A DNA stretch of 64,000 nt from an uncultured Holophagales bacterium (GTDB lineage: Bacteria > Acidobacteriota > Thermoanaerobaculia > Multivoradales > UBA5704): NCBI GenBank assembly GCA_963842525.1, contig CAWJGT010000023.1:64001-128000 (forward strand), read 5' to 3'. The notes under the pieces were generated by a model. It was not told the origin of the DNA, did not search any database, and saw nothing but the letters and a program-made list of their open reading frames with translations. Below are positions 2,841-20,941 of the stretch, one piece after another. Made by a program: the position numbers and the translations under genes. Within the stretch, counting starts at the first letter, position 1. Every line of letters starts with the position of its first letter.

Positions 2841-4505
2841 GTGCAGACCGTGGCGAACTATACTACTGATCTCAAGTATCTTCTGGAGGAGTGTACATAC
2901 ACATCTGGCGTCCAGCAGCACGAGGCCAGTGTGTATTACCAGGAATCTCTTAGAGAGGATTCCCTACCGTTCCTAGCAATCGGCCACATGGACAGCAGGA
3001 ATCTGCGCGAAATTCTCCGGCATCTCACAGGATGGCTCCGGTTCAGAATCGTTCTCCAAGCGCTCAGCAATGTCTGTGAAACTCTCGAATATGCACACCG
3101 CAACGGCATTGCCCACGGCGCGATCGCCCTAGAAAAGATCACCTTCTCTCAACGAACCCGGCGATTCAGACTCGCCTTCGCGTCTCCTTCTCCGCTTCTG
3201 TCTGATGACAATATAGGAATCACTGCCGCAGAGCACATGGGAAGAGCAGTTCAGAAGGACCTCTCGGACTTGGAGGCCATCTTCGCGAACCTTCTTTCCG
3301 GAGTACGGGTGCCTTGGCTTGAGAAGATCCTGCTCAACTGCCGAAATCGACGCTTCACGAATGCCACCGGACTCTTCCGGGCGATTGTTCATCGGGAGCC
3401 CGAAAGAGCTCTTCTCATCGTTTTGTCGGCTCACTATAACGCCGACGCTCAGATTATCCACTACGACCTCGACATCGGAGGCTCAAGATCCCCCGAGATA
3501 CTCGACTTGGGAGTCAACCACAAAACGATCAGCGATCTCTGTGCACGCTGGGACCATATCGGCGAGCTCGCGCTACAACGTGCAAATAGAAAACGCGATT
3601 GCGCTCTAGTAGTCAACGGCAACCAAGGGATTCAAGAGTTAGTTAAGGAGGTTTCCGAGGACGCCACGCATTTCGTTCTTGGTGCCAAGGTGCAGAGAGG
3701 GCTCGAGAGGTATCCGCAAGCAGCCCTGTGGATCATGTATGATCCGCGCCTTTCTGCGATCCCTTGGGAGCTGCTGGAAATCAGCGGCGCTCGTTTCTGC
3801 CAGCAATTCCATGTGGCACGCTCGCCGCGGGTGGCCGCCCGCGTGCTCCATCCCGGGCTGCAGGCGGAAAACAAAATTCGCCTGCTGTTCATCGAAGACC
3901 CAGATGGCAATCTTGAAGGCGCACGAAAGGAGTGCCAACGCCTAAGAGCGGGGCTCGAATCCTCTCCCTTTGCCGACCGTATAGATATTTGGACCGTTAA
4001 TCGACGCGATGACTCACTTGCAATTCGTGGCCGAATGTTGCGCAGCGACATCATCCACTTCGCCGGACATGGCCTCTTCCATAAAAAATACACAGAAGAC
4101 AGCGGCCTGAGCCTCGGCGGCGGCGATATTTTTCCCGCGAGCCAGCTCAAGGATTTTTGGAGGTACGGAGCCCCATCTTTGGTTTTCGCGAATGCTTGTG
4201 GTTCAGGGCGGACCAACAAACAGATATCCCGGCATCGGGTCTACAGCGATGCCGCGACCGGTCTGGGTCAAGCGTTCCTCGCTGCCGGCGTCGCCAACTA
4301 TGTGGGAACCCTTTGGAATGCTCCGGACGGCGACGCCACGATTGACTTTGCGGTCGAGTTCTACCTCTGGTTCCTCTCTGGATGCACGGTGAGTCTGGCT
4401 ATTCACGAGGCGCGGAACCACTGCATCAAAAAATACGGCGAAGACGACCTCACCTGGGCTCGCTACGTCCTCTTTGGGCACCCCCTGAGTCGCATTGAGA
4501 TTTGA
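2841..4505 (+). CDS. Pseudokinase-like N-terminus fused to CHAT (caspase-like, clan CD) protease
   Basis: LEYAHRNGIAHGAIALEKITF resembles the kinase catalytic-loop region with HRD lost. CHAT motifs LSAIPWELL, IIHFAGHG (His), LVFANACGSG (Cys), GLGQAFLAAGV..YVGTLW, WARYVLFGHP. GTG start after a CAGGA RBS-like site. Confidence 0.85.
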   Translation: MQTVANYTTDLKYLLEECTYTSGVQQHEASVYYQESLREDSLPFLAIGHMDSRNLREILRHLTGWLRFRIVLQALSNVCETLEYAHRNGIAHGAIALEKITFSQRTRRFRLAFASPSPLLSDDNIGITAAEHMGRAVQKDLSDLEAIFANLLSGVRVPWLEKILLNCRNRRFTNATGLFRAIVHREPERALLIVLSAHYNADAQIIHYDLDIGGSRSPEILDLGVNHKTISDLCARWDHIGELALQRANRKRDCALVVNGNQGIQELVKEVSEDATHFVLGAKVQRGLERYPQAALWIMYDPRLSAIPWELLEISGARFCQQFHVARSPRVAARVLHPGLQAENKIRLLFIEDPDGNLEGARKECQRLRAGLESSPFADRIDIWTVNRRDDSLAIRGRMLRSDIIHFAGHGLFHKKYTEDSGLSLGGGDIFPASQLKDFWRYGAPSLVFANACGSGRTNKQISRHRVYSDAATGLGQAFLAAGVANYVGTLWNAPDGDATIDFAVEFYLWFLSGCTVSLAIHEARNHCIKKYGEDDLTWARYVLFGHPLSRIEI

Positions 4506-4514
4506 GGAAAGACC

Positions 4515-5074
4515 ATGAGCACCGAGACGATCCCCATTCCCGGCTTCCTGCCCACCCCCCTGGCCACTACGCCCCGCGAGCTCCAGGGGCTCGCGCTGGA
4601 GCTCTATCGGCACCTGGCGGACAACGCCCGCCGGCTGGAGGAATGCGAGCGGAAAGCGAAGGACGAGCTCGCCTCGCAAGCGCGAGAGCATGACCGGATG
4701 ATCGCGCGCCTGGCCGCGGAACGCTTCGAATTCCAGCGGCTTCTGGATCGCGTGCTGCCCCAGATCGAGCAGGGCGAGCTCCTCCGGACCTGGCCACGGC
4801 GCTGACCCTGCAAGCCCGGAGCTGGGACGCAGAGCTTGCGCGGGCGCGGATCGAGGTGATCGATCTCGCCGGGCAGATCCTTACCGATGCGCTCGCCGAA
4901 AAGGTTGAGGTCGAGAGCGCAATCCCGGATCCGGATGTGAATGAGACAGTAGTGCGAAAAACGCTGACGCCGCTCGTCCTGCACGAGGGCCGGGTGGTAG
5001 GCGTGGCCAAAGTGATCACGTCAGTCCCCTTGCCGCGCAGCAAGGAACAAGAGCTGAAGGAGGGCTCGTTGTGA
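4515..5074 (+). CDS. GrpE-like nucleotide exchange factor, interrupted by a frameshift near 4780
   Basis: 4515..4805 encodes a coiled coil. The frame of 4856..5074 is open from about 4784: PDLATALTLQARSWDAELARARIEVIDLAGQ...ETVVRKTLTPLVLHEGRVVGVAKVITS, a GrpE beta-head pattern. The stop overlaps the Hsp70 start (GTGA). Confidence 0.7.
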
Positions 5075-7740
5075 AGATCGTCGGCATCGATCTCGGGACC
5101 ACCAATTCCTGTGTCTATTACCTGGACGATGAGGGCAACCCCGTCCTCGTCACCGACTCTCTCAACCGGAAGATCTTTCCCTCCGTGGTCTGGTCGGCCG
5201 GGCCGGGCAAGGAGGTCATCGTCGGACACAAGGCGAAGAGCCGCCTGGGACAGCAGCCCTCTCCGGTCGCTGCGGTGAAGCGGAAGATGGGGACGACCGA
5301 GGAGGTTCGGCTCGGCGGACAGGGAGTCGCTCCGGTCGAGGTCTCGGCCCACATCCTCTCTTATGCAAAGCGTCTGGTCGAGGAGGCGACCGGAGACCAG
5401 GTGGGCGGCGTGGTAGTCACCATGCCTGCCTACTTTGACGCCGCACCCAAAAATGACACCTATGAGGCCGCAGTGCAAGCCTTCTTCTGTGGCGACGCCG
5501 CGGCGGCTCGAGGCCGGCTCGAGCTGCAGCTCGAGCCGGTGGCGGCGGCCTACGCCTACACCCTGGAAGATCCCGCGGAGCGCCTCCGCATCCTGGTCTA
5601 CGACCTGGGAGGCGGGACGTTCAACGTGACCCTGCTCGACAAGTCCCCCGAAGGCGGCCTCACGGTGCTGAAGTTCGGCGGCGATCCCCATCTCGGCGGC
5701 GACAACGTCGATGACCGCGTCGCGGCCTGGTTTCTCTATCTCCTGCGCGGCGGCAAGCCGGAAGCGCTGGACAGGATCCTCGCTCCGGGCCGCTATCCGG
5801 CGGACAGGCAATACACCCTCCTGCAACAGCTTCTGACCAACGACACGGCAGGACTGCGCGGCGAGCTGCGGCCGGAGGACCAGGACCTCAAGATCGGCGC
5901 GAAACCCCGTTACGCCCTCGATCTCGAAGCGAGCAACCCGCAAGATCTGGAACGTATCCAGACACTCAAGGCCCTGGCCGAGAAGGCCAAGATCGATCTC
6001 TCCGTCTCGACCGAGGCGACAATTTCGAAGCTGGGCGCCTTCACTGACCAGGATGGGGAGATCGTGGACGTCGACCTGACCCTCAACCGGAGCGAATTCA
6101 ACCGGCTCATCGGCGACATGATCGTCCGCACGATCGAGGAGACCGCCCGCGTCGTGGAGGGAAGCGGGCTGACCCTCGATCAGATCGACCGCATCATTCT
6201 CGTCGGAGGCTCGACGCGCATGCCGGTCGTGCGCGACGAGCTCGAGAAGGCGTTTCATCGCCCCATCCAGATGGCGGATCATCCCGACCTGATCGTCGCC
6301 CGGGGCGCCGCCTTGCGGGCCCGCGAGCTCAGCCTCGCGACGCCGGACGACCGCAGCGACGGAAAGATCTCCCTCGAATACCCGCGCCAGACGCCCGAGC
6401 CCCGGATCAACATCAAAGGGCAGGTGAGCCAGCCTCTCACCGGGCATCAGGTCTATCTCTCCCGCGGCGGAGAGGATGTGGCCGCCGTGCCCGTCCACGG
6501 GGACAGGTTCCTCCTCACGGACATACCGCTGGCGCACAATACCGAGAACACCTTCCATCTGGAGGTGGCGGACGCGGAGGACAACCTCTTCGCCGCCACG
6601 GAGGTCACGGTCCGGCACAGCGATCAGGCGATCGCCTCGACCGGCCCTCTATCGATACCGCTCACCAAACCGATCAAATCTCGCGGCGTAGGTGGGTTCA
6701 CGACGATCCTTGAAGAGGGAACGGTGCTCCCGGCAAAAGAACCTGTCACCTGCTACCGAGCGACCCAGGACGATCACATCGTCATCGAGCTCTACGAAGG
6801 CGAGCGCAAGCTCGCGGACTTGCGGATTGAGGGGCTCGACCCAAGTCTGCCTCTGAGATCAGCCATTGACGTCGTCGTCAACCTCGACAAGGACTACACA
6901 TGCCACGCCACGGCCACGATCCGGACGACCGGGCAGAGCGCCGGTGTTGCTTTCAGTATTTCTCGTCTTCAGATCCCGACCGTCGAGACCATGGATCAGG
7001 ATCTGGAGAACGTCCTGGAGGAGATCGAAAACGACATCCTCGGGATACGCGATCCCAATCTACGAGCCGGGTTTTCCCGCAAGGCCCGCCGCCTTGCAGC
7101 CGACTATCGCAAGGCCCGCCGGGAGCTGACCCGTGATCACCACAACCTCTATTCGATCGTCGGAGAGCTGCGCAAGGTCCTGATCGAGATCCGCGGTGCC
7201 CACGACGTCCTGGAGCCGCCCTTCGAGGTGCTCGGGCAGCTCGCCCGCATCAACCGCGGAGCGGCCGATCAGTTGGAGGGCACAAGCGCCATCCCGAAAG
7301 AAGACGCTCTGGAGAAGATCGCTGCTCTGGAGCGGGCGGGCAAAGAGGCCTGGGAAAAGCAGGACGCCCCGACCTGGAAGGCGATCATCGGCGAGCTCGA
7401 GAAAATGAAAGGCGATCTGGAGCATGCAACCAGGCCTGCGGGCCCAGGCCCACGGGATTTCCCGCCCGACTTCCTGCAACGAGAGATCCTGTCCTGGCTC
7501 GGCGAGCTGCGCGGCCGAGCCAAGGAGAACGACCTGGAGCAGCTTTTCAGCGTTGATCTTGAAACGATCGAAAGGGCCGTGCGGCACGTCGATCTCCGCA
7601 ATGCGGACCAGGCGCGGAATGCTCTTATCCAGATCGTCCAGGAGCAGATCAAGCCGCTGGACCACAAGATGGAGCGCATCATCCGCGAATCCGGAGGCAC
7701 CCTTGCGCAGTCCGGCGATCGGGTCTACGTGGAATGGTAA
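5071..7740 (+). CDS. Divergent Hsp70-family protein A (889 aa)
   Basis: VGIDLGTTNSC, TMPAYF, LEPVAAA, YDLGGGTFN, GGDNVDD, AEKAKIDLS, IILVGGSTRMP, PDLIVARGAA. Followed by a beta-rich insert, an SBD-beta-like region and a long helical C-terminus. Confidence 0.95.
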   Translation: MKIVGIDLGTTNSCVYYLDDEGNPVLVTDSLNRKIFPSVVWSAGPGKEVIVGHKAKSRLGQQPSPVAAVKRKMGTTEEVRLGGQGVAPVEVSAHILSYAKRLVEEATGDQVGGVVVTMPAYFDAAPKNDTYEAAVQAFFCGDAAAARGRLELQLEPVAAAYAYTLEDPAERLRILVYDLGGGTFNVTLLDKSPEGGLTVLKFGGDPHLGGDNVDDRVAAWFLYLLRGGKPEALDRILAPGRYPADRQYTLLQQLLTNDTAGLRGELRPEDQDLKIGAKPRYALDLEASNPQDLERIQTLKALAEKAKIDLSVSTEATISKLGAFTDQDGEIVDVDLTLNRSEFNRLIGDMIVRTIEETARVVEGSGLTLDQIDRIILVGGSTRMPVVRDELEKAFHRPIQMADHPDLIVARGAALRARELSLATPDDRSDGKISLEYPRQTPEPRINIKGQVSQPLTGHQVYLSRGGEDVAAVPVHGDRFLLTDIPLAHNTENTFHLEVADAEDNLFAATEVTVRHSDQAIASTGPLSIPLTKPIKSRGVGGFTTILEEGTVLPAKEPVTCYRATQDDHIVIELYEGERKLADLRIEGLDPSLPLRSAIDVVVNLDKDYTCHATATIRTTGQSAGVAFSISRLQIPTVETMDQDLENVLEEIENDILGIRDPNLRAGFSRKARRLAADYRKARRELTRDHHNLYSIVGELRKVLIEIRGAHDVLEPPFEVLGQLARINRGAADQLEGTSAIPKEDALEKIAALERAGKEAWEKQDAPTWKAIIGELEKMKGDLEHATRPAGPGPRDFPPDFLQREILSWLGELRGRAKENDLEQLFSVDLETIERAVRHVDLRNADQARNALIQIVQEQIKPLDHKMERIIRESGGTLAQSGDRVYVEW

Positions 7741-7766
7741 GACGCGGGCCGAAGGAGACACATACC

Positions 7767-10268
7767 ATGAAAAGCTGCGGCATCGACCTGGGCACGACCA
7801 ACAGTTGCATCTTCGTCGTGGAGGGCGAGGGCAACCGCCTCATCAGCGACGATCAGGGGAATTCGATCTTCCCTTCCGCCGTCTATATCAGCCGCAACGG
7901 CATGCGGAGCGTGGGGGTGACGGCGCGCAACCGCATGGGCGAGCAGCCGCCGCCGGTGGTCGCGGTCAAGCGGAAGATGGGCTCGACCGAGACGGTCACC
8001 CTGGGTGGCAAGGAATGGACTCCGGTCGAGGTTTCGGCGGCGATCCTCTCCTTCCTCAAGGAACTGGCCGAAACGCAGACCGGCGCGGTGATCGACCGGG
8101 CCGTGGTGACGGTGCCGGCCTATTTCAATCACATCCAGCGGCAGCAGACGGACGAGGCCGGCAAGGCGGCGGGGTTCCGCAAATTGGTCACCCTGCTGGA
8201 GCCGGTCGCCGCCGCCCTGGCCTATTCCCTGGCCAGCGAGCGCGACACGCTGCGGGTGTTCGTCTATGACCTGGGCGGCGGGACCTTCGACGCCACGCTG
8301 CTGGAAAAGGACCCGCAAGGCGGCATCAGCGTCCTGGCGTTCGGCGGCGATCCCTTCCTGGGCGGCGAGGACGTGGACGCCCGGCTCGCCCGCGTGCTCC
8401 TCCAGAAGCTGACCGAGCGGGGCTATCGCCTGGAGCTCGACCTCGGGCACCCGGAAGATGCAAGCCGCTTCCAGCGCCTGAAGTTCTACGCCGAGCTGGC
8501 GAAAAAGGAGCTGTCCGAAAAAGAGGAAGCCAGCCTCGTCCGCCAGGGACTGTTCGAGGACCAGAAGGGTGAGACCGTCGATCTGGACCTCACCGTCACC
8601 CGGCACGAGCTCGAAGCCTGCGCCGAAGACCTGATCCAGCGCAGCATCGACGAGTCCCTGGCGACCCTTGAAAAAGGGGGCGTGCCGCTCTCTTCGCTCG
8701 ACGAGGTCATCCTGGTGGGAGGTATGTCCCGCATGCCGCTGGTGCAGCGCAGGGTCGCCGAGGCTTTTCAAAAGCAGCCCCGGCTGGTGGACCCGGACCT
8801 GATCGTCGCCCGCGGCGCCGCTCTCAAGGCGGCGGAGGTGTTCGGCGAGCAGGCCGTCGCAGGCTCCGGGCTGCGCCTGGAGCTGCACTATGACCGCAAC
8901 ACCGAGCAGGACCGCGTGCGGATCGGCGGCCTGCTCGACCGGCCGCTCTCCGGCCACACCATCTTTCTCCTCGGCGGCCCGGACGAGCTCGTTCAGCCGA
9001 TCGAAGGCACGGACCGCTTCAGCTTCGAGAACGTGCTCCTGGCCCCGGACGCGGAAAACGTTTTCACACTCTCGATCGAAGACGCCCGGGAAAACCTTGT
9101 CCTGGAGCACGAGGTCAGGATCGTCCACAGCGCCTCGGCCCGCCGCATCCTGCGCTCGCCGGGCTCGGTGGTGACGAAACCGATCGCAGTCTGGACGGTC
9201 GACGGCCGCCAGGTGCTGCTGTCGGAGAATACGGCGCTCCCCCACAGCGTGTCCCACACGTTCGAGACGGCCGACCAGGGAGGCCGGATCGTCGTGCCCA
9301 TCTGGGAAGGCAACCACGAGGTCACCCGCATGGAGATCGAAGACATCCCCCGCGACCTCAAGGTCGGCACGCACGTCGTGGTGAGCGTTCAGATTCATTC
9401 CGACTACCGGATCGAGGCCGTGGCCACGGTGCCCGAGATCGAACGCTCGGTGCAGATCGACTTCCGCATCGAGCCGGTGGACACCGCGAAGATCACACCG
9501 GACTTCGTGCGCCGCGAGCTCGCCGCCCTCGAAGAGCAGGCGCGCGCTGCTGAAGCGGAATGCCCCGGCGAAAGAGCGCGCGACATGTTCCGGGTGCAAC
9601 TCACCTCGCTCAAAGACCAGATCGACAAGGAGCTCGAGGAGCCCGAGCCCCAACGGAGCCGGCTCCACGAGAAGCTGAGCGAGATGCGTGCGCTGATCGC
9701 ATCCCTGCCGAAGAAGGACGCGGGCGCTCCGCTCGATCCCGCCTTTGAGGAATTCAGCAGCCGGTTGGCGGACGTTCTGAGCACAGCCATCGAAAATGAG
9801 CATCCCAATCTGCCGCAGGTCCGGCCGCAGATCGAGGCGCTGCGGGAGCGGGCAAAAGAGGTCTGGAAGAGCCGGGATGCCATTGCCTGGCGCCGCGTCC
9901 AGGAGCAGCTCGGGGCCATCGCCAGGAAACTCATGCCGGAGATGAGCCCGGAAGAGAGGGCCCTCCACATGGCGGCATGGTTGATCGTCGACCAGCTCCC
10001 GAGCCTCGAAGCGGCCTCCGGAGGGGCTCTGGCGTCACAGGTCCAGGCGATCCGGAGCGAGATCGAAGAGGTCTTCCTCTCGCTCCAGCTCCTGGGAATG
10101 GACCCGCAGGAGGCGATCCAGAAGCTCCTGACTCTCTATCGGGAAAGCATCCAGCCCCTGCGGCGGAAGCTGGGCCTGGACGCGACCGCCGAGGTCGGAA
10201 TGGCCGATCCCTCGGCTTTGAAAGGTTTTGTACGCGGACGCAAGCCGGCCCTGGAGGGAAGGGCGTGA
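7767..10268 (+). CDS. Divergent Hsp70-family protein B (about 833 aa)
   Basis: ATG at 7767 after GAAGGAG RBS. CGIDLGTTNSC, TVPAYFNHIQRQQT, LEPVAAA, YDLGGGTFD, AELAKKELS, VILVGGMSRMP. Collinear paralogue of 5071..7740. Confidence 0.95.
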   Translation: MKSCGIDLGTTNSCIFVVEGEGNRLISDDQGNSIFPSAVYISRNGMRSVGVTARNRMGEQPPPVVAVKRKMGSTETVTLGGKEWTPVEVSAAILSFLKELAETQTGAVIDRAVVTVPAYFNHIQRQQTDEAGKAAGFRKLVTLLEPVAAALAYSLASERDTLRVFVYDLGGGTFDATLLEKDPQGGISVLAFGGDPFLGGEDVDARLARVLLQKLTERGYRLELDLGHPEDASRFQRLKFYAELAKKELSEKEEASLVRQGLFEDQKGETVDLDLTVTRHELEACAEDLIQRSIDESLATLEKGGVPLSSLDEVILVGGMSRMPLVQRRVAEAFQKQPRLVDPDLIVARGAALKAAEVFGEQAVAGSGLRLELHYDRNTEQDRVRIGGLLDRPLSGHTIFLLGGPDELVQPIEGTDRFSFENVLLAPDAENVFTLSIEDARENLVLEHEVRIVHSASARRILRSPGSVVTKPIAVWTVDGRQVLLSENTALPHSVSHTFETADQGGRIVVPIWEGNHEVTRMEIEDIPRDLKVGTHVVVSVQIHSDYRIEAVATVPEIERSVQIDFRIEPVDTAKITPDFVRRELAALEEQARAAEAECPGERARDMFRVQLTSLKDQIDKELEEPEPQRSRLHEKLSEMRALIASLPKKDAGAPLDPAFEEFSSRLADVLSTAIENEHPNLPQVRPQIEALRERAKEVWKSRDAIAWRRVQEQLGAIARKLMPEMSPEERALHMAAWLIVDQLPSLEAASGGALASQVQAIRSEIEEVFLSLQLLGMDPQEAIQKLLTLYRESIQPLRRKLGLDATAEVGMADPSALKGFVRGRKPALEGRA

Positions 10269-10291
10269 CGTTCCGCAAGGAGGGTTGAGCG

Positions 10292-10651
10292 ATGCCTGCA
10301 TGCCCCTACGGTCCACACCGGCTCGTCCTCGACGAGCGCCTGTGCTGCCGCCATTGCGGCGAGGATCTCCGGCTCTACGCCGCTCTGCGCGATCTGCCGG
10401 TGAGCCTCTACAACGAGGCCCGCCGCCTGTGGGAGGAGGCCGCGCTCGTGGAGGCTGCGGCATGGCTCCACGCCGCCCTGGAGCTGCGGGAAGACTTTCC
10501 GGAGGCGCACTGGCTCCTCGCCGCGGTCGAGGCCCGGCAGGGCCGGCCGGAGAGCGCCAGGAGCCGGCTGGTCCGCGCGCGCGCGCTCGGAGCCGAAATC
10601 GATCCGGACTGGATCCCGCTCCCTCTACCCGAGGAGGTCGAGACCTCATGA
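10292..10651 (+). CDS. Small zinc-ribbon plus TPR protein
   Basis: RBS AAGGAGG. CPYGPH...CCRHCGEDL (putative Zn ligands), then LYNEARRLWEE..AALELREDFPEAHWLLAAVEARQGRPESA (TPR). The stop overlaps the next ATG. Confidence 0.75.
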   Translation: MPACPYGPHRLVLDERLCCRHCGEDLRLYAALRDLPVSLYNEARRLWEEAALVEAAAWLHAALELREDFPEAHWLLAAVEARQGRPESARSRLVRARALGAEIDPDWIPLPLPEEVETS

Positions 10652-12373
10652 GCGTTCTCCTGGAGCCGAAAGCAGCACTGCGCGAATTGATCGTCGGAGC
10701 GGTCGACCGTCTCGACCCGTCCGGCATGGGGAACACCGCGCCAGGAGAAATCCGGCTCCTTCCAGAGCCTGCGGCCAGCACGCTCTCGATCGTGGACAGC
10801 GGCGCCGGCCTGTCCCTGGCGGAGGTGGAGGACCTGCTCGGCAATGCAGGCTCGGATACGGAAGGCTTCTGGGCCGGCCTGCTCGCCTGCCGGCGGCTCT
10901 GCTCCCGCCTGGAGGTCCTGACGCGGGCTTGCGACAGCGGAACCCGCATTCTCTTGACGGAGGACGGCGAGATCCGGATCGGCGCCGCCGAGATCGAGAG
11001 CCCGGGGACCGCAGTGCACCTCCAGCTCTGCCGGGAGCATTCCAGCCTCCTGACCGACGATCTGCTGACGCGACTGATCAAGAAATCCTGCGATTTCGTC
11101 CGCGTCCCCATCTATCTCGGCCGGGGCTGGGATCCGGTCAACCTCATGGACGCGCCCTGGTACCGTGAGATCCCGGACCTTCAGCTCAAGGGAGAGTTGG
11201 ATAGAACCCTTCAGATCCGCACGCTTGCCGCCTTCCCCTTCCAGATCTCCGACAATGCCGGCCCGCGCCTCCGCGGCACCCTCTACATCCGCTCCTGGCG
11301 GCATTCGGCCACTCTGCGCCTCTACTGCCGTCGCGTCTTCGTGGCTGCGGCCGAGGCCGACCTTCTGGGACCGGGGCTTCGTGAGCTGGTATCCGGCGTG
11401 ATCGACGCGGATGCCCCGTCGCGGGCCGAGAGCCGGCAGCTCCTGGAGCCGCGCTCCTCCCAGGGTGCATGGCTTCAATCGGTCCTGCTGCGGATCGTTG
11501 CGCAAGGATTTCTCGGGTTGGCCCGGCAGCGGAGAAAGCAGCTCCAGCAGCTCATGGACGATCACGGTCCGTCCATCAAGGCGGCCTGCCTGGCCTTCCC
11601 TGAAGAGCTGGGTGAGCTGCGCAACCACCTGCCCTACCGCACATCTCTGCGGGACGCCGCCACCCTCCCCGAAATCCTGGAGGGGCGGCCGGAGCGGACG
11701 GTCATCTACGCCGACGACTTCGACATCGCGGCCCCTCTGGTCCCGCTCTACCGCCGGACCAACACCGAGGTCGTTTACATGACGGCGCCGGCCGACGAAA
11801 GGCTCCGGGCGCAGTGGTCGATCGAAAGAGACGGGATCATGTTCCGGCGGGCCGATCTGGAGCCGCCGCTCCCTCCCGCGACCGGTGAGGAAGGTGCGCT
11901 CGCGGGGCGTCTCGAGCACCTGTTCCAAACCTCGATCGATCCCGGGCTCGCCGTCGAGCTCCGCGCACTCAGCCCTGACGCACCGCCCGCGATCCTCTCG
12001 ATATCCGACGAGGGCCGCCGGAAGCTGGAGATGCTCGCGGCGATCCGTTCCCGCCAGCAGCAGGGCCGCACCAACGAGCTGCCGCCGGAGACTCCGGCAT
12101 CTCGCCGAATCGGGAGCACTGGATACGACAACCATCCCCCAGAGGCTCATCCTCAACAGCTCCCATGGGATTGTGGCGCAATGCATCGCTGCCCTCGACG
12201 GGGCCGAGCTTCCTGACGACGGTCCCACGCTCCTTTTCGCCCGCTTCCTGCATGCGCAGGCCCTGCTCTCCGCCGGCTTACACCTCCCCCGCTCGCGAAT
12301 TGCGGAGCTGTCCCGCGCCATGACTGAATTGACGACCAACCTGCTGCCTCAGACCGAAAGGAGTGGAGCATGA
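10648..12373 (+). CDS. Degenerate Hsp90/HtpG-like protein (likely pseudo-ATPase), frameshift near 12091
   Basis: ATG 10648 with GAGGAGG RBS. ALRELIVGAVD (N-box Asn to Gly), LSIVDSGAG, PGTAVHLQL, LIKKSCDFVRVPIY, VNLMDAPW, LRLYCRRVFV. The +1 frame supplies the HtpG C-terminus RLILNSSHGIV and ends overlapping the next ATG. Confidence 0.8.
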
Positions 12374-15072
12374 CGCTCAATACAGCGCAGATGGAATCCA
12401 GGTCGATCAACATCAACCTCAAGACGATTCTCCCGTCGCTGGCCAAGAACCTCTACGGCGACGACTGGCGGATCACCATCCGGGAGCTTTTGCAGAACTG
12501 TCACGATGCCATTGCGGAGCGTGCCTTTTGCAATCCCGGCGAGACCGAGGCGGCAAGAATCGACATCTTCCCCGATCCCACGCCCGGCATCTATACCCTG
12601 ACATTCAGGGACAATGGCATCGGCATGACCCTGCAGGAGGTGGAGGACAATCTGGCCACCGTGGGCGGTGATCACAAGAGCACAAAGATCGAGAAGCTTG
12701 CCCAGGCTGGTACGGCAGACCGCTCCGTGCTCGCGCAGCTCATCGGCCAGTACGGGATCGGCTTTCTCTCCTGCTTCATCATTGCGGATTCTGTCGAGGT
12801 GGTGACCCGGAGCCAGGCCGAAACATCGACCGGTGTGCGGGCCGTGTTCACCGGAGAAACCCGTTGGTTTTACAGTGACGAACCCAACGCAGCTCCCGGC
12901 ACCCAGATCACCTTACACCTGAAACGGAACGAAGCGATCCGCGATCCGGCGACGGGCAGGGAGATCCCTTTGCAGGAGCTTCTCAACTTCGAGCGGCTGA
13001 AGCAGGAGGTGCGGCGTTTCGGCGATCTCCTGCCCTATCCGGTCTACGTCCACCGCAGCCCGATGGACATCGCCGGTGATCTCTGCAACACCATGAAGGC
13101 GCCGTGGGAAAACCAGGCACAAGCGAGGGACGAGCTCCTGCGGTTCCTCCGGGACCGCCATCCCGGCGAGAACGAGCCCATATCGCCGATCGCCTTCAAC
13201 CTCGACCGCAACAAGGACAAAGTCAGTGCACAGGGTGTTTTCTATTTTCCCCGTACAGGGCAGGAAGCGAGCCGCTCGTCCGAATCCGTCGCCCAGGTCG
13301 AGCTTTTCTGCCGGCGGATGTTCATCACCCAGGACATCCCGGCCCTCCTGCCAACGTGGGCCAGCTTCGTCTGCGTCGTGGTCGAGTGCCCAGACATCGT
13401 TCCGACATTGAACCGCAACGACGTGATCCGCCACGGCAACGCCTTTGTAGAGCTCAAACATGCCCTGGGCCGCCACATCATCGAAAGCCTGCAGGTCCTG
13501 GCACAGCGCTACCCGAAAGACTTCGCTGATATCCAAGTGGAGCACCGCGAGCGCCTCTACCGCGGCTTCCTCTCCGACTTCAAGAGCACGCCCTCGAGGG
13601 AGGAGCATTTCTTCCGGACGCTCATCGACTACATACCCTTCACGGTTATCGACCGCACGAAGCCGGCTGGCGAGTCCATGACCCTGCGCAGATACCGCGA
13701 CGAATCAAGGAAGCGTAACACCCTGGCGAAGCCAAACGAGCCCACTCGGGATCAGATTTATTATCTGGATGCCTCCGAGGCAACGGGGCAATACAAGGCG
13801 ATGATCATGCAGCGCGACATCCCGGTGATCCTGGCGAATCATCCGGCGGAGCCCAGCCTCCTGCACGCCTACGGTTCTGCCTTCGGAAGCGAGGTCGAGG
13901 TGGAAGATGCGCGGGCGATCCTCAACCTGTACGTGGAGCCGGTCGAGCAGGCGCCTTACGAGGCCATGAAGCAGTTCCTCGCCAGCCTGGATGGCGGCGG
14001 GCCGGACGAGGTGAGCGCATCTCGTTTCGAGCCGAGCTACGTGCCGGCCATCCTGATCGTCAGCTCGGCGAGCTCCCCGGAGAGGGCCGAGGCGCTCGAA
14101 AGGCTTCTGCGGGAAGGAGCCCCCGTCCTCACGGGCAAGGTCCGCAGGATGATGGAAGACGAGATCATGGGCTCACGGACCGGCCGCGCCACGGTCAGCG
14201 CGGTGCTGAACGACAACAATCCGGTTGTGAAAAAAATACGGGACTATTGTGCGGAAGGAAAGCCCCTGACCGGGATCGTCGCCGATGTTCTCCACGAGAT
14301 CTATCATCTCGCCAGGGCATACAGCGACCGGGCCGCGGCGGAAAGCCCACATTTCTACGAGCACAGAAACATCCTTCTGGCCAGACTGCTGGAGACCGAG
14401 CAACAACTTGTCACGGTGCAGAGCGAGCGGGACCTGCTCGTGCTTGAGAAGCGCAAGTCTTTGGAGCCCCCCACTCGTATGGAGGCCCGAACCTGCGCGA
14501 TGCTCCTCACCGACCTGCGCGGTTCCTCCCGGATGGTGGGTTTCCTCGACAGCCTCCAGAGCGCGGAGATCCTGCAACAGTACGCCGGCGATGTCCAGGC
14601 GATCGTGGAAAAGCTCGGTGGAAAGATCGAGAAGTTCACCGGCGACGGCGTCTTCGCCCATTTCGCGCTGGATGGAGCAACCACTAAGGAGGTCATCGAA
14701 AAAGTGTCGGACTGCGCTCTCGAGATTCAGATGTTCACTAAGAAGTTCTTCTCCCGCGGCGAGGTCGCCGAGACGCTTCTCCATGCGGGCGGGATCCTGG
14801 TGGAAGGCTCCCGGACCCTTCTGCACGTGGCGCGGGTCATGTACGGCACGGTTGCCGGAGCTCCCGCCCTGGTGGGCAAGCAGGTCGTCGCCCTCTTCCG
14901 CGCCTGCGATCAGGACGAGCTCTTCGAGCAGTCCCCCATCGTGCTCTCGGAGCCCTTCCTCTTCAGTCTCAACCCCCTGCCCCAGCCGAAGCCGATCGCC
15001 ATGGACATGAAGCTCGACGCGAGCCTGCCGGGCATGAGCTTCTATCCGCACCCCAACTTCGTCCGGCCGTAG
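12370..15072 (+). CDS. Hsp90/HtpG-family ATPase fused to a C-terminal class III adenylate/guanylate cyclase domain
   Basis: LAKNLY, IRELLQNCHDA, FRDNGIGMT, LIGQYGIGFLSCF, PGTQITLHLK, LFCRRMFI, PTLNRND, AVLNDNNPVV. After a coiled coil: MLLTDLRGSS and IEKFTGDGVFAHF (both cyclase metal-binding Asp). Confidence 0.92.
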   Translation: MTLNTAQMESRSININLKTILPSLAKNLYGDDWRITIRELLQNCHDAIAERAFCNPGETEAARIDIFPDPTPGIYTLTFRDNGIGMTLQEVEDNLATVGGDHKSTKIEKLAQAGTADRSVLAQLIGQYGIGFLSCFIIADSVEVVTRSQAETSTGVRAVFTGETRWFYSDEPNAAPGTQITLHLKRNEAIRDPATGREIPLQELLNFERLKQEVRRFGDLLPYPVYVHRSPMDIAGDLCNTMKAPWENQAQARDELLRFLRDRHPGENEPISPIAFNLDRNKDKVSAQGVFYFPRTGQEASRSSESVAQVELFCRRMFITQDIPALLPTWASFVCVVVECPDIVPTLNRNDVIRHGNAFVELKHALGRHIIESLQVLAQRYPKDFADIQVEHRERLYRGFLSDFKSTPSREEHFFRTLIDYIPFTVIDRTKPAGESMTLRRYRDESRKRNTLAKPNEPTRDQIYYLDASEATGQYKAMIMQRDIPVILANHPAEPSLLHAYGSAFGSEVEVEDARAILNLYVEPVEQAPYEAMKQFLASLDGGGPDEVSASRFEPSYVPAILIVSSASSPERAEALERLLREGAPVLTGKVRRMMEDEIMGSRTGRATVSAVLNDNNPVVKKIRDYCAEGKPLTGIVADVLHEIYHLARAYSDRAAAESPHFYEHRNILLARLLETEQQLVTVQSERDLLVLEKRKSLEPPTRMEARTCAMLLTDLRGSSRMVGFLDSLQSAEILQQYAGDVQAIVEKLGGKIEKFTGDGVFAHFALDGATTKEVIEKVSDCALEIQMFTKKFFSRGEVAETLLHAGGILVEGSRTLLHVARVMYGTVAGAPALVGKQVVALFRACDQDELFEQSPIVLSEPFLFSLNPLPQPKPIAMDMKLDASLPGMSFYPHPNFVRP

Positions 15073-17028: not shown

Positions 17029-19137
17029 TCACCGGCTGAGCTGTGCCCCCCGCCGTACAGCTCCCCGTGGCTGCGCGAAGGATCGTCCAGTATCCAAAAG
17101 CCGATCGGGGGTCTCCTTCCGGACGACCCGGATCGTCACCTGCCGCACGATCCACTCCTTGTCGGGGAACTCGGAAGGGTAGAGCTTGCGCTTGCGCGGC
17201 GCCTCCCCCGCCATCATCGTGAAGAGCTGGCCGAGCACGCCCTTCGGCACTCCCCGCTTGACCGACAATGGCTGCTCCAGCGCCGGCATCCGCAACCAGT
17301 CGAAGCTCGTCGTGCCCCTGGTGGCGAAGATCTTGAAGATGTCGGTCCCCGCGGTGAAGCCGGGGGGCAGCCAACCGCGGACCGCCAGCGGCAGGGACTC
17401 CTCGGGACCGAGCGTATGGTCCGTCAGGCCGTAGCGCGGCGGCCAGATCGCCTCGATGGACCAGTCGGGCCGCAGGTCGAGCACGGCGATGCTGAGGTCC
17501 CACGGCGAGCCGTTGAAGATCTCGACCCGGACGACTTCGTCGGGAGCAGCTTCGACGACTCCTGGCTCGGGCCGGCCGGGGATCCGTACCTCGAACCGCT
17601 CGAAGAGCGGATGCGGCTGTGGGTTCTCGAGCTCCGCGATCGTCCGGTAGCGGGCGAGGTGGTCCAGGCGCCTCAGCAGCCGTGGCACCGATGCGGCCTG
17701 GGAGATCGGCAGCGGCGGATGCAGCGGGATCGGTGAGCCTCCACGGTCCAGGATCTCGTACTCCCCCTGGTCGGCGACGGCCACCTGGAGATCGGCCTCC
17801 CTGCCGTCCTCCACAAGGCTGATAAAGCCCGGCGCCCTCTCGGCGAGAGACCGGCGAGCCAGGTCGAGGGCACTTTCCTCACCAGGGACCGGCACGCCTT
17901 CCGTGCGCGGCACGACGGCCACCGCACGCTGGAGCGAGAGGGGGCCCGCCGCCGTGAGGACAGCCTGCGCTCCGGGCTCGATCGGGCCCGGCGACAGCTC
18001 GCGGACGACTTCGGCCCAGGACTCCACCGCCCCGGCCTGCCGGACCTCGACGAGCGCCTGCCGGAGGTCGCTCCGGTCAACCTGCGCCCCCGGAGGGAAG
18101 ATGGTGAATTGCTCCCCGACCCGCACGCCCTGCGCCCGGCCGGTGTTGAGCAGGAGCTGCCCCCTCTCGAGGCGGATCACCAGGACAGGCCCGCCGGTCT
18201 CGACGGGGAGATCTCCGGAGGCCCGTACGGCGTCAGTGCGGCTCGTACCGAGGAAGGGCCGGTCGCCATCGCCCAGGAGCACGGGCGTCTGTTGGGGGAG
18301 GAGGCCGTGGATGCGCGCCACGAGGAGGCCGTGAAGCTGGCGGCAGGCGAGGCCCGTGCCCTGGCGGCGGAGGATATCGAGCAGCCAGTAGGTCAAGGCT
18401 CCGTGCTGCTCTCTGTCCGGAAAGGGCATCTCCATGGCGCGCTCGCGCTCCCGGCAGGCGGCGACGAGGACGTAGCCGTCGGCCGGGGGGAGCCAGCCTG
18501 GACCGCCCAACCCTGCCGGGTGGAGCCGGCGCCAGGCCTCCACGAGGTCTTCACGGGTCCCCGCCCCGCTCTCCGCCGGCCGGGCCGTCCGATCGACGCG
18601 CAGTTTTCCGCGCGCCACGGCTCCTGTTCGCCCCCGGGTCGCGCCGCCGCTGTGGCAACTGTCGAGGACGACGGTGACCGAGAGGCCGCGGGCCGTCATC
18701 CGGTGCAGGAGCAGCCCCAGCTCGACGTCGCGAAGATAGCGGGTCTCCGAGAGGCAGATGTCGCATGGCGCCAGGCACTCGTCCCAGCCGCTCTCCCCCT
18801 TGAGCTCAGGGAACAGGGTCGGCGTCCGTGCGCCGTGGCCGGCATAGTGGATGTAGACCTGGTCGCCTGGGAGGGCGGCTTCGGTGACCTGCCGGAAGGC
18901 GGCGACGATGTTCTCGTAGGTGGGCCGCCGCCGTGGATCGCCGGCCGGCATACCGGGGGCCGCCGTCAGCTCGACCATCTGGTTATCGGGCAGCTCAAAG
19001 CGGTCGCGCACGAAGGCTGCCACGGCTTCGACATCCCCGACCGCGCCCGCCAGGTCTGGACAGGAATCCCCGTCCGGGAAGTGGTTTGGCGCATAGTCGC
19101 CAACCCCGATCAGCAAGGCGAACAGGCGGGAGCTCAT
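17029..19137 (-). CDS. Caspase/metacaspase-family (C14) protease with C-terminal accessory domains
   Basis: Start MSSRLFALLIGVGDY at 19137 (ATGA overlap). LAGAVGDV, PTYENIVAAF, YIHYAGHG (His), VVLDSCHSGG (Cys), HGALTYWL, QQTPVLLG. Confidence 0.9.
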   Translation of the reverse strand: MSSRLFALLIGVGDYAPNHFPDGDSCPDLAGAVGDVEAVAAFVRDRFELPDNQMVELTAAPGMPAGDPRRRPTYENIVAAFRQVTEAALPGDQVYIHYAGHGARTPTLFPELKGESGWDECLAPCDICLSETRYLRDVELGLLLHRMTARGLSVTVVLDSCHSGGATRGRTGAVARGKLRVDRTARPAESGAGTREDLVEAWRRLHPAGLGGPGWLPPADGYVLVAACRERERAMEMPFPDREQHGALTYWLLDILRRQGTGLACRQLHGLLVARIHGLLPQQTPVLLGDGDRPFLGTSRTDAVRASGDLPVETGGPVLVIRLERGQLLLNTGRAQGVRVGEQFTIFPPGAQVDRSDLRQALVEVRQAGAVESWAEVVRELSPGPIEPGAQAVLTAAGPLSLQRAVAVVPRTEGVPVPGEESALDLARRSLAERAPGFISLVEDGREADLQVAVADQGEYEILDRGGSPIPLHPPLPISQAASVPRLLRRLDHLARYRTIAELENPQPHPLFERFEVRIPGRPEPGVVEAAPDEVVRVEIFNGSPWDLSIAVLDLRPDWSIEAIWPPRYGLTDHTLGPEESLPLAVRGWLPPGFTAGTDIFKIFATRGTTSFDWLRMPALEQPLSVKRGVPKGVLGQLFTMMAGEAPRKRKLYPSEFPDKEWIVRQVTIRVVRKETPDRLLDTGRSFAQPRGAVRRGAQLSR

Positions 19138-20564
19138 GCCGAAGCCGCGGGTCTGGGCAGCCGCACAGCGGGATCGCCGAGCACGATGTAGTTGCGGGCG
19201 TCGTTGCAGGCGATCCACAAGGTGGCCAGGTACTCCGGATCCTCCGGCCCACGGTTGCGCAGACGCTGCAGCTCCTTGGCCAGCGGGACCGAGAGCCTAG
19301 CGAAGCGTTCGCCGAATACCTCCATGGCCTCTCCCACCGGCCGTCCCTGGAGGATCATGTCCAGTGCGTCCTCGAAGGGTTGGATCTGCTGGCCGGCGCC
19401 GCCCCATTCGATGGAGGACGGCCAAGCCGTCTCGATGTGGCCGATCACGGCGAGAGCCCCGCCCCTCGGATGTGCGAGGAGCCGCTGCGGCAGGCGGGCG
19501 ACGAACGGTTGGGGAGCGACCTCTGCCGCAGCGTCCGACTCGTAGCGGAAGTCGTTCTCCCGCGGGGAACCCGCGCTGTAGCAGGCGAAATGGAAGGAGA
19601 TCATCCCCCGCAGGCGCTCGGTTTCTGGACAGAGGTCGTTGGCGCAGAAGAAAAACTCCCGTGGCGCCGGCCCTTTGAACCGGTTCGGCCCGGGGTGCTC
19701 CCGGCACACAATGGAGCCCTGATACTCCTGCAGGACCGCGCTCTCGCGGCGCAGGACCATGCCGTGGCTGGCGGTGAACAGGAAATCCGGCGTCTCGTCG
19801 CCGCCCAGCAGGCGGCGCAGGCGGACCTTGGTCGCTTCCTGCCGGAACGCCTCGTTCACCTCCCAGCCGGCCTGGTCCCGGGCGCGTTTCGCGAGCGGCT
19901 CCGCCAGGTGGCGGACGCTGAGCTCGGTCGCCGGGTCGCCCTCATGCTCGACAGCAAAAAAGGCGGCCGTGCGGCCCTGCTTCGGCGGCTCCGTCTCCGC
20001 GGCCACGACCTGGCAGGCGTAGCGCTCGTATTCCGCGAGCGTGTCGAAGCAGATCCGTCCAACCGCGTACTCGATGTCAAGCTCGTACTGGAAGTCCCAG
20101 GGGATCTCTTCCGGGCCTCCTACGATCAAGAGGTAGTACGGCATTTTCGCCGGCTCGACCGCGTCCGGACCTACGCCGAACCGGCGCAGGTAAGCGTCCT
20201 TGGTGTCCCCGGCCTTATACCCCTCCTCGGAGACAAGCTCGCGGTAGTAGTGGGGGCGCTTGATGCCGACCTGGCTCTTGCGCAGGTCCAGAAGAGGTCG
20301 GAGAGCCTTCAGGAGGTCGAACGTCCGTTCGTCATTCTGGGCAAAGATAATTCCCCAGCCTGCCTGCGAGAGATCGCCGGCATCGGCTTTCCGGTCACGC
20401 AGCCGCCTCTCCCGGCCCTTGACCCAGAGCTGGAGATCCTCGACATCCTCCCGCTCGGGCTGCCGGCGGACCCATGCCGCGAACTCTTCGACCGTGGCTG
20501 GAGAGTAGGCGTACTCTCCGGTCTCGAACTGGATCCCATTGGGGACGAGCAGTCTCTGCTCCAT
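19134..20564 (-). CDS. Peptidase C25 (gingipain)-like clan CD protease
   Basis: PYYLLIVGGPEEIPWDFQY..YAVGRI, LFTASHGM (His), FHFACYSAG (Cys), GGALAVIGH, NYIVLGDPAVRL. GAGGAGG RBS. Confidence 0.75.
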   Translation of the reverse strand: MEQRLLVPNGIQFETGEYAYSPATVEEFAAWVRRQPEREDVEDLQLWVKGRERRLRDRKADAGDLSQAGWGIIFAQNDERTFDLLKALRPLLDLRKSQVGIKRPHYYRELVSEEGYKAGDTKDAYLRRFGVGPDAVEPAKMPYYLLIVGGPEEIPWDFQYELDIEYAVGRICFDTLAEYERYACQVVAAETEPPKQGRTAAFFAVEHEGDPATELSVRHLAEPLAKRARDQAGWEVNEAFRQEATKVRLRRLLGGDETPDFLFTASHGMVLRRESAVLQEYQGSIVCREHPGPNRFKGPAPREFFFCANDLCPETERLRGMISFHFACYSAGSPRENDFRYESDAAAEVAPQPFVARLPQRLLAHPRGGALAVIGHIETAWPSSIEWGGAGQQIQPFEDALDMILQGRPVGEAMEVFGERFARLSVPLAKELQRLRNRGPEDPEYLATLWIACNDARNYIVLGDPAVRLPRPAASA

Positions 20565-20588
20565 CGCGTCCTCCTCGGTCGTGGCGAT

Positions 20589-20621
20589 GGAGGCGGCGGG
20601 GCTGAGGAACCCGCCGCCTCC
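20589..20621. promoter_or_regulatory. Perfect 12-bp stem-loop between the peptide gene and the C25 gene (no U tract on the coding strand)
   Basis: GGAGGCGGCGGG-gctgaggaa-CCCGCCGCCTCC. Confidence 0.6.
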
Positions 20622-20648
20622 CTATCCTTTCGCGGTCCGAGCCCGGGG

Positions 20649-20867
20649 TCAGTAGGTGCTGGGATCGTCGGAGGCCTTGCCGTAGCCCGGCTTGATAGGC
20701 TGGTCCGGGATCGGATCGTCGCCCGGCTCGCCGTAGCCGGGTTTAGGCGGCACGTCCGGGATCGGATCGTCGCCCGGCTCGCCGAATCCGGGCTTGGGCG
20801 GTCGGTCCACAATCACATCGCCCGTCTTCAATGCCTGCGGATCCACCGGCTGCTTCATGTCGCTCAT
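20649..20867 (-). CDS. 72-aa peptide: 21-aa leader-like segment plus three 17-aa Pro/Gly/Asp-rich repeats
   Basis: AAAGGAGA RBS. MSDMKQPVDPQALKTGDVIVD-RPPKPGFGEPGDDPIPD-VPPKPGYGEPGDDPIPD-QPIKPGYGKASDDPSTY. The DNA period is 51 bp with synonymous differences between copies. Confidence 0.8.
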   Translation of the reverse strand: MSDMKQPVDPQALKTGDVIVDRPPKPGFGEPGDDPIPDVPPKPGYGEPGDDPIPDQPIKPGYGKASDDPSTY

Positions 20868-20911
20868 CAGGGTGTCTCCTTTCTGATTAGCTCGGCCGTT
20901 CTCTTTCCCAA

Positions 20912-20938
20912 TAGACACGGGGGGGCATGGTTTTGTTT
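20912..20938 (-). promoter_or_regulatory. Possible ECF-type promoter (AAAC-N18-GTCTA) upstream of the peptide gene
   Basis: The minus strand reads CCAAACAAAACCATGCCCCCCCGTGTCTAT. It resembles the generic ECF AAC/GTCT elements, but the spacing is uncertain. Confidence 0.25.
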
Positions 20939-20941
20939 GGC

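Follow-up and report, generated by a model that had tools for sequence, protein, structure and literature searches.

The question of one versus two working ATPases per Hsp90 dimer has so far been studied with engineered heterodimers in which one protomer is ATPase-dead, laboratory constructs made from a single gene. Here we describe a locus that may combine a competent and a dead protomer in the same way, where the asymmetry would come from two diverged genes. It lies in a 64,000-nucleotide stretch of DNA (the window) from an uncultured Holophagales bacterium (GenBank assembly GCA_963842525.1, contig CAWJGT010000023.1, positions 64,001 to 128,000 of the forward strand), in which a degenerate, dead Hsp90 paralogue (10648–12373, + strand, in two frames joined across position 12091) is followed directly by a fusion of an Hsp90-like protein with a class III cyclase (12370–15072, + strand) that has intact ATPase motifs. 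All window coordinates given below are positions in this stretch. Full-text literature searches found no published Hsp90-cyclase fusion or paired dead Hsp90 paralogue, and no natural, selected Hsp90 pseudo-ATPase encoded beside an active partner was found in the literature searches.

The asymmetry of the locus also differs from that of known two-component cyclases. In the mammalian membrane adenylyl cyclase (C1/C2) and in soluble guanylate cyclase (alpha/beta), activity arises by the pairing of two cyclase-homology domains, and the cyclase domain of the fusion resembles such enzymes in structure (1cs4, Z-score = 18.9; 3uvj, Z = 17.2); unlike these, however, the partner here is without any cyclase domain and the asymmetry resides in the Hsp90 body. 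The fusion cyclase likewise matches models of PycC from Pycsar (E = 9e-11) and the cCMP/cUMP cyclases (8jsf, Z = 16.8; 7r65, Z = 15.7), but it differs from Pycsar in being fused to a 690-residue Hsp90 body, and purine cyclases match at least equally well (CyaB, Z = 21.2). No Pycsar-type effector with a cyclic-nucleotide-binding domain was present among the part of the window open reading frames (ORFs) that was scanned with Pfam. With the GHKL/GHL defence ATPases (Tiamat, MORC) the N-domain of the fusion shares the Bergerat fold and a weak PADLOC match (TmtA, 3.7e-6), whereas the fusion has middle and C-terminal domains of the Hsp90 type, its Hsp90 body matching TRAP1 (Z = 25.9) better than MORC2 (Z = 12.6).

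In gene content the locus recalls the conflict systems described by Kaur, Burroughs, Iyer and Aravind (2020; PMC7159879), whose main text reports systems with caspase/CHAT, TPR, HSP70 plus GrpE, cNMP (cyclic nucleotide monophosphate) cyclase and FGS domains, with MoxR-vWA or GTPases as the core NTPases, and notes that inactive domain copies are frequent, some being suggested as dominant negatives. CHAT, caspase, TPR, Hsp70 and a candidate GrpE-like protein are common to those systems as presented there and to the window, but the core NTPase is here an Hsp90 pair, and the terms Hsp90, HtpG and GHKL have 0 occurrences in its main text. The available portion of the CoCoNuT paper covers defence systems in which Hsp70-like domains are degenerate, and does not describe the present Hsp90 system.

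Results

Motifs and fold of the dead paralogue

The gene at 10648–12373 is very probably a real and conserved dead paralogue of Hsp90 whose frame break is an artefact. Its 5′ part, 481 codons of frame 1 (10648–12090, + strand), encodes a strapless N-domain, the middle domain and the beginning of the C-domain, and its 3′ part, 93 codons plus stop of frame 2 (12092–12373, + strand), encodes the C-terminal helices, including LILNSSH (12146–12166). By word-based search its close relatives are just P0002 (79% identical, 572 aa) and P0003 (62%, 561 aa), both with intact frames, followed by ordinary HtpGs at 23–26%; together with a further orthologue from a long-contig Thermoanaerobaculaceae metagenome-assembled genome (MAG; locus L023), the three orthologues are 51–82% identical to the window protein. 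The start codon at 10648 is backed by an ATGA overlap, by GAGGAGG at 10631–10637 and by agreement with the N-termini of P0002 and P0003.

An exhaustive profile search returned 21 representatives at E = 1e-30 or better, and the matches included proteins of ∼630 aa that are 30–37% identical to the dead protein and that sit directly upstream of the fusion in loci L024 (Acidobacteriota), L026 (Planctomycetia) and L025 (Desulfocapsa). All 12 of these paralogues have intact motifs (REL(I/V/L)xNAxD, DxGxGM(T/S/D) and FG(I/V)GFY(S/A)C) and a strap-length N-terminus, with a lid already down to 25 residues.

Alignment with the downstream active copy (RELLQNCHD) and with solved Hsp90 and TRAP1 structures (LRELISNSSD / IRELISNASD) places Gly17 in the column of the Mg-binding Asn, within a degenerate N-box RELIVGAVD (10681–10707, + strand, residues 12–20) that keeps the catalytic Glu. 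The G1 box DSGAG (10795–10809, + strand) is retained, with Asp50 and Gly54 in invariant columns. At the G2 position, GFWAGLL (10864–10884, + strand, residues 73–79) replaces GQYGIGF / FGIGFYSC, two of the three glycines being gone and one Trp inserted. The spacing between G1 and G2 is 17 residues, compared with 36–38 in HtpG (5/5), 39–40 in the fusions (9/9) and 25 in the intact paralogues (12/12), and only 11 residues precede the N-box, versus 29–47 in the other groups, leaving no strap. Retained in addition to the catalytic Glu and the G1 box are the Thr of PGT and the middle-domain catalytic-loop Arg, which by alignment corresponds to R264 in P0002 numbering and occupies a nearly invariant column. 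The middle and C-terminal domains are present, with conserved C-terminal helices in which the LxLN..H and ALLSxG motifs are found, and a cyclase domain is absent.

Much of this had been proposed in an initial annotation made from the letters alone. The Asn-to-Gly change in the N-box, GFWAGLL in the G2 position, the shortened lid, the missing strap and the retained middle and C-terminal (LILNSSH) domains without a cyclase were all recovered where they had been placed; the description of the paralogue as dead is sound for the N-box Asn, G2, lid and strap but does not extend to a total loss, since Glu, G1, Thr and Arg remain. Judged from these residues, the ATP pocket is eroded and not erased, and ATP hydrolysis and an Hsp90-style closure of the N-domain are almost certainly impossible for the protein.

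The overall fold is that of Hsp90. A profile of the dead clade, built from the window protein and two close relatives, aligns with solved Hsp90 through the N, M and C domains (E = 1.8e-14) and with TRAP1 from position 8 to 541, and the AlphaFold (AF2) model of the intact orthologue P0002 (predicted local distance difference test, pLDDT, 86.2) has full-length HtpG, Hsp90 and TRAP1 as structural matches (Foldseek E = 3e-31). The protein thus has the three-domain fold, the Glu, the G1 Asp, the PGT Thr and the middle Arg in common with the HtpG/Hsp90 family, but is set apart from it by Gly for Asn, FWAGLL, the 17-residue lid gap and the lack of a strap, and by its position in a separate clade (support 100). 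Against the NCBIfam HtpG model NF003555, with a cut-off of 371 bits, P0002 scores 85.7, the fusion 200.7 and the intact L024 paralogue 197.3, all below the cut-off; a canonical htpG is present elsewhere in the same genome.

Origin of the dead state

The dead clade has four known members (window, P0002, P0003 and L023), which share the Gly at the Asn position, FWAG(L/W)LAC (4/4) and the 17-residue gap between G1 and G2. RELI(L/V)GAVD and TEGFWAG(L/W)LAC are invariant across the window, P0002 and P0003; P0002 and P0003 read RELILGAVD, while L023 agrees at FWAGLLAC and has the N-box RALIVGTVD, in which the catalytic Glu is also gone. The G1 box is DSGAG, DNGAG or DDGAG in 3/4 and DGAAG in P0003. 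Degeneracy of the N and G2 boxes therefore extends to the three close orthologues but not to the distant members at 30–37% identity; intact boxes in homologues, named in the initial annotation as a sign against its model, are thus seen in the distant members and not in the close ones. Whether the partner is dead and whether the pair has one cyclase half are distinct questions.

A tree of 41 sequences resolves canonical HtpG, fusions and paralogues as one clade each (support 99–100), and the dead clade (Shimodaira–Hasegawa-like approximate likelihood ratio test, SH-aLRT, 100) is nested among the intact paralogues (support 96). The dead state arose once, in one subclade, and the ancestral design is a cyclase-less partner, the dead ATPase being later and clade-specific. 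The stem branch of the dead clade has a length of 0.82, whereas its counterpart among the fusions has one of 0.078 (nodes of the two trees need not match exactly), and inside the clade the branch lengths of paralogue and fusion are similar, which suggests a burst of change at ATPase loss followed by renewed constraint. A dead-clade profile run against 400 other genomes of the phylum gave weak matches only (best E = 7.6e-18), and two scans of metagenome contigs, made for the context of P0002 and P0003, found no relative.

Selection

Ratios of nonsynonymous to synonymous substitution rates (dN/dS), computed by the Nei–Gojobori method for the window genes versus their L023 orthologues, are 0.39 for the 5′ part and 0.34 for the 3′ part of the dead paralogue, and about 0.43 for its N-domain (a ratio taken from separate dN and dS). 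The corresponding values are 0.15 for the fusion and, for other genes of the operon described below, 0.18 for Hsp70-like protein A, 0.30 for Hsp70-like protein B, 0.21–0.28 for the GrpE-like gene, 0.17 for the CHAT protein and 0.13, the lowest of the operon, for the small TPR protein. The extra divergence of the dead clade from the intact paralogues is confined to the N-domain (36%, versus 50% among intact paralogues) and the first half of the middle domain (27% versus 36%); the second half of the middle domain (39% versus 42%) and the C-domain (35% versus 35%) are no less conserved than among intact paralogues. Because of these dN/dS values and the conservation of the second middle-domain half and C-domain, the dead paralogue is under purifying selection, somewhat relaxed, with its client-binding and dimerisation parts maintained. 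A ratio near 1, as would mark a decaying copy, is seen neither before the frame break (0.39) nor after it (0.34).

The frame break

An extra base 'a' at 12091 (+ strand), following the GAG codon at 12088–12090, introduces a +1 frameshift. Reading frame 1 as far as 12090 and then frame 2 from 12092 onwards gives ELPPE followed by LRH, identical to P0002 and P0003, and the extra base is absent in 3/3 orthologues, L023 being in frame at the site. Past 12091 no stop is met for 93 codons, and the frame then closes precisely at the ATGA overlap with the fusion, and identity to P0002 is 82% both before and after the break. One DNA run (X1, a soil metagenome) contains the locus, at low depth, with five pieces at 99% identity or more; the flanking pieces end at 11765 and resume at 12123, and none passes over 12091. 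Among the RNA runs listed, none contains the locus.

Breaks of this kind recur in conserved genes of the same assembly (G000). The rpoB gene is split in two frames near its N-terminus by one break (contig C9, 670320–670723), the secA gene that shares a contig with the window is cut into four frame pieces by three breaks (C23, 266680–268993), a second, secA-like gene has two (C21), uvrA has two frame shifts (C3, 1070969–1073734) and a gyrB-like gene has one (C6), while rpoC, ileS, gyrA, gyrB and a second uvrA are unbroken. By our own count over sampled conserved genes this amounts to ∼9 breaks per roughly 35 kb of conserved coding sequence. The operon at 4515–15072 has two breaks, that at 12091 and a missing base near 4779, and the same operon in the L023 MAG has at least five, all at other sites. 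The 12091 indel is most likely an assembly error because it is absent from the orthologues and because rpoB, secA and uvrA are frameshifted in the same assembly. Single-base pseudogene calls in this genome, and in the similar MAG of L023, need read-level confirmation.

A decaying pseudogene, in which the frameshift at 12091 is real and the motif erosion represents ongoing decay, would account for the broken frame, for the second broken gene in the operon, for the highest dN/dS of the operon falling on the dead paralogue and for the state of the L023 orthologue (8263–9985), which has a frame break of its own at a different site, at about residue 320. We regard this as very unlikely: the intact orthologues P0002 and P0003 share the degenerate motifs, dN/dS (0.34–0.39) is far under 1 and is not raised past the break, the post-break frame is open for 93 codons to the exact ATGA overlap, essential genes such as rpoB, secA and uvrA show breaks about as densely (∼9 in roughly 35 kb) and the L023 operon has its own series of breaks, at least five in number. 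Programmed +1 ribosomal frameshifting through the extra base would also yield a full-length product, both frames being open across the site, but is extremely improbable given that the site, CCG GAG A CUC, has neither a stop codon nor a slippery run, that 3/3 orthologues are in frame there and that the assembly is error-prone. The reading of an assembly error in an otherwise intact gene is therefore retained below.

Pairing with the Hsp90-cyclase fusion

A cyclase-less Hsp90 paralogue lies directly upstream of the fusion in 5/5 loci having upstream DNA (window, L023, L024, L025 and L026), with an ATGA overlap at the junction in two loci and gaps of 12–27 nt in three. In the window the TGA at 12371–12373 overlaps the ATG at 12370, with AAAGGAG 6 nt upstream, in agreement with the translational coupling to the active copy put forward in the initial annotation. 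P0002 and the 90%-identical fusion P0009 are both on contigs of 7754 bp, an equality that is the sole ground for their co-location; equal contig size is likewise the sole ground for placing P0003 with P0280, a homologue of Hsp70-like protein B. Pairing with the fusion is independent of the partner being dead. The module is rare: 5.8 billion proteins yielded at least 24 clusters of full-length fusions, and ∼186,000 species genomes yielded five loci.

The fusion family comprises at least 24 full-length members (847–927 aa, 42–90% identity) and four partial ones among the best 120 of 435 matches. In the Hsp90 part of the window fusion the N, G1 and G2 boxes are intact and the lid is full. Its model (pLDDT 80.3) has a long helix (residues 660–696) leading into the C-terminal domain and a low-confidence linker (692–698) between this helix and the cyclase domain. 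The latter (residues 702–900, window 14473–15072) has a class III fold, with CyaB (3r5g, Z = 21.2, root-mean-square deviation 2.6, 186 aligned), CyaC (1wc1, Z = 20.7), Cya2 (Z = 19.6) and the Pycsar cyclases (Z = 14.6–16.8) as structural matches, and its two metal-binding Asp motifs, LLTDLRGS and FTGDG, can be aligned with those of CyaC and hardly vary across 24 sequences. In the fusion homologue P0032 (926 aa), LLHFSFAEEA and DRFGENKLL replace LLTDLRGS and EKFTGDG, and hence dead versions of the cyclase exist too. Two proteins of ∼885 aa at 25–26% identity, P0037 and P0040, are named HSP90 family / class 3 adenylate cyclase by their source; the family of the Hsp90-cyclase fusion may be broader, or the fusion may have arisen a second time.

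A heterodimer of the dead paralogue and the fusion is plausible. In the form in which it was first suggested, an inhibitory 1:1 heterodimer would be off for having only one cyclase domain, and subunit exchange or cleavage by a CHAT protease would switch it on. Class III cyclases are known to need two catalytic domains, and the fold is confirmed here; the partner is cyclase-less in every locus, the paralogue and fusion genes are coupled in translation, the module has CHAT and caspase genes on its flanks in the window, L023 and L024, and the low-confidence linker at 692–698 could serve as a cleavage site. Nevertheless, we judge this version unlikely: the cyclase-less partner is ancestral and its ATPase is intact in 12/12 of the others, two heterodimers could still pair their cyclase domains, and there is no known protease site. 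Since the rest of the family typically combines a cyclase-less partner with a live ATPase, the asymmetry of the pair does not stem from the dead ATPase, and the model leaves the loss of the ATPase unexplained.

Genomic context

The operon genes on the + strand of the window are tightly packed. A TPR protein (109–2313, + strand) and a 163-aa ORF (2327–2818, + strand) are followed by a protein with a kinase-like N-domain and a CHAT protease domain (2841–4505, + strand; Pfam CHAT 1.1e-24, Pkinase 0.003 over residues 12–102, PADLOC PD-T4-6 6e-7), an orthologue of which is present in L023. The kinase-like domain reads HRNGIAHG at the kinase HRD position and is probably a pseudokinase, which could, as a speculation, act as a nucleotide sensor for the cyclase product. 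The next gene (4515–5074, + strand), in our own reading of its sequence, is a small candidate GrpE-like gene in two frames; by comparison with L023, where ...IEQGQLPPDLATAL is read in a single frame, it lacks one base near 4779. A Pfam scan of its product matched no family, and a GrpE-like exchange factor is suggested by the helical N-terminal half, the beta-rich C-terminal half and the position of the gene.

Two Hsp70-like genes come next, A (889 aa, 5071–7740, + strand; Pfam HSP70 1.7e-64) and B (844 aa, 7734–10268, + strand; Pfam HSP70 3.8e-84, NCBIfam DnaK 6.9e-87 and below the cut-off), and then a 119-aa protein (10292–10651, + strand) with Cys pairs (CPYG...CRHCG) at its N-terminus followed by TPR repeats. 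The stop of this last gene overlaps the ATG at 10648 of the dead Hsp90, and its L023 orthologue is 85% identical. Its position, between Hsp70-like and Hsp90-like genes, resembles that of TPR adaptors of the Hop/Sti1 type.

Beyond the fusion, the minus strand carries a caspase-like protein (Peptidase_C14, 728 aa, 17029–19218, − strand, 6e-13) and a TPR-CHAT protein (1036 aa, 20942–24055, − strand, CHAT 1.5e-69), and a C25-like ORF lies within the same minus-strand stretch (17029–24055). The window TPR-CHAT protein is 35% identical over 1072 aligned positions to a neighbour of the L024 module and 39% to one in L023, and the window caspase is 30% identical to the caspase gene adjoining the L024 module, where a caspase and TPR-CHAT pair lies directly upstream of the Hsp90 genes. 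This pair may be a conserved effector arm of the Hsp90 module. In L026, a GAP1-N2 protein (6101–7942, − strand; Pfam PF20013, E = 2e-5) adjoins the Planctomycetia Hsp90 module, providing a link to the GTPase-centred conflict systems presented in the main text of Kaur et al. (2020; PMC7159879).

The window and L023, both dead-clade loci, carry the Hsp70 pair, the GrpE-like gene and the small TPR protein, none of which occurs in the flanks retrieved for L024, L025 and L026. The Hsp70B homologue P0280 (76% identical) is assigned to the contig of P0003 by equal size only, and the contigs of the other Hsp70B homologues match none of the fusion contigs in size. This distribution suggests that Hsp70, GrpE-like and TPR genes are a module of their own, which became associated with the Hsp90 pair in the dead clade.

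A serious rival to any heterodimer, and one that we consider possible if somewhat doubtful, is that the dead paralogue forms a homodimer acting as an ATP-independent holdase or adaptor, to which the Hsp70-like pair would connect, perhaps via the TPR protein, and that the Hsp90-cyclase is a separate homodimer downstream of it. Homodimers are the established rule for Hsp90, the second middle-domain half and C-domain (client binding and dimerisation) are as conserved as in the intact paralogues, the Hsp70 pair, GrpE-like and TPR genes occur only with the dead clade among loci with readable flanks, and the long helix preceding the cyclase in the fusion model would fit self-pairing. Weighing against the holdase is the strict adjacency of the two Hsp90 genes in 5/5 loci, including those that are Hsp70-less, which points to a direct partnership predating the Hsp70 genes.

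Discussion

Our results describe a pseudoenzyme partner that is made from known domains and lies inside a module for which no description was found; its dead state is narrow and lineage-specific. Concerning the function of the dead paralogue, we propose that it is a non-catalytic regulatory subunit of a chaperone-gated cyclase within a CHAT/caspase conflict island. We infer the physical association, the role and the process alike, and regard the proposal as evenly poised between right and wrong. The paralogue and the fusion would be co-produced and would hetero-oligomerise through their Hsp90 C-terminal and middle domains, with the fusion providing the sole ATP-driven clamp together with the cyclase output. 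The dead subunit would then be a scaffold or regulator that sets whether two cyclase domains pair, inhibition being one option. In the dead clade, the Hsp70-like pair, the GrpE-like gene and the TPR protein may offset the lost ATPase. The module as a whole would turn a chaperone-type sensing event into a cyclic-nucleotide signal, most likely in a conflict or cell-suicide pathway.

Several observations weigh against this proposal. Hsp90 is normally homodimeric, so that each protein could just homodimerise. In a fusion homodimer the modelled helix at 660–696 would self-pair, as is usual in class III cyclases, which favours such a homodimer as the active species. The dead paralogue evolves ∼2.5-fold faster than its fusion partner, and its dead state is known from just four sequences, two of them from error-prone assemblies; the association between ATPase loss and Hsp70 gain comprises two loci read directly and one inferred. 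As to the output, the cyclase domain is divergent, with no match to Pfam Guanylate_cyc (PF00211) even at E = 1. Its family consensus LVGxxVVxLFRA, read on the sequence and not by superposition, has the Arg but, apparently, a Val where Asn is expected from the motif of the transition-state Asn/Arg pair, which we take to be of the GxxVNxAxR type. Finally, no cyclic-nucleotide receptor was found among the part of the window ORFs scanned with Pfam.

Two further extensions of the proposed regulatory subunit can be considered. In the first, which we hold to be quite unlikely and which argues by analogy with the eukaryotic Hsp70-Hop-Hsp90 relay, the Hsp70-like proteins and the GrpE-like protein would load a client or foreign protein, via the Zn-ribbon/TPR protein, onto the dead Hsp90, which would gate the cyclase clamp and thereby raise a cNMP alarm controlling the CHAT and caspase proteins. 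Such a relay is not known from bacteria. In the second and bolder variant, the remnant Bergerat pocket, in which the adenine-binding Asp and the Thr are kept and a conserved Trp is gained while the Mg and phosphate ligands are lost, may have been re-used to bind the cyclic nucleotide as feedback.

The locus may be a natural experiment on the question of one versus two ATPases in Hsp90 dimers. The recurrent Hsp90-pair/cyclase module nevertheless matters more than the dead state itself: it recurs in Acidobacteriota, Planctomycetota and Desulfobacterota, beside CHAT and caspase proteases, and this suggests that second-messenger synthesis is here coupled directly to a clamp of the chaperone type, within a prokaryotic pathway of conflict or suicide. 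As the module is not culturable at present, its impact hinges on heterologous reconstitution. If the proposal is true, Hsp90-like proteins would join the MoxR, STAND and GTPase proteins as sensing or thresholding NTPases.

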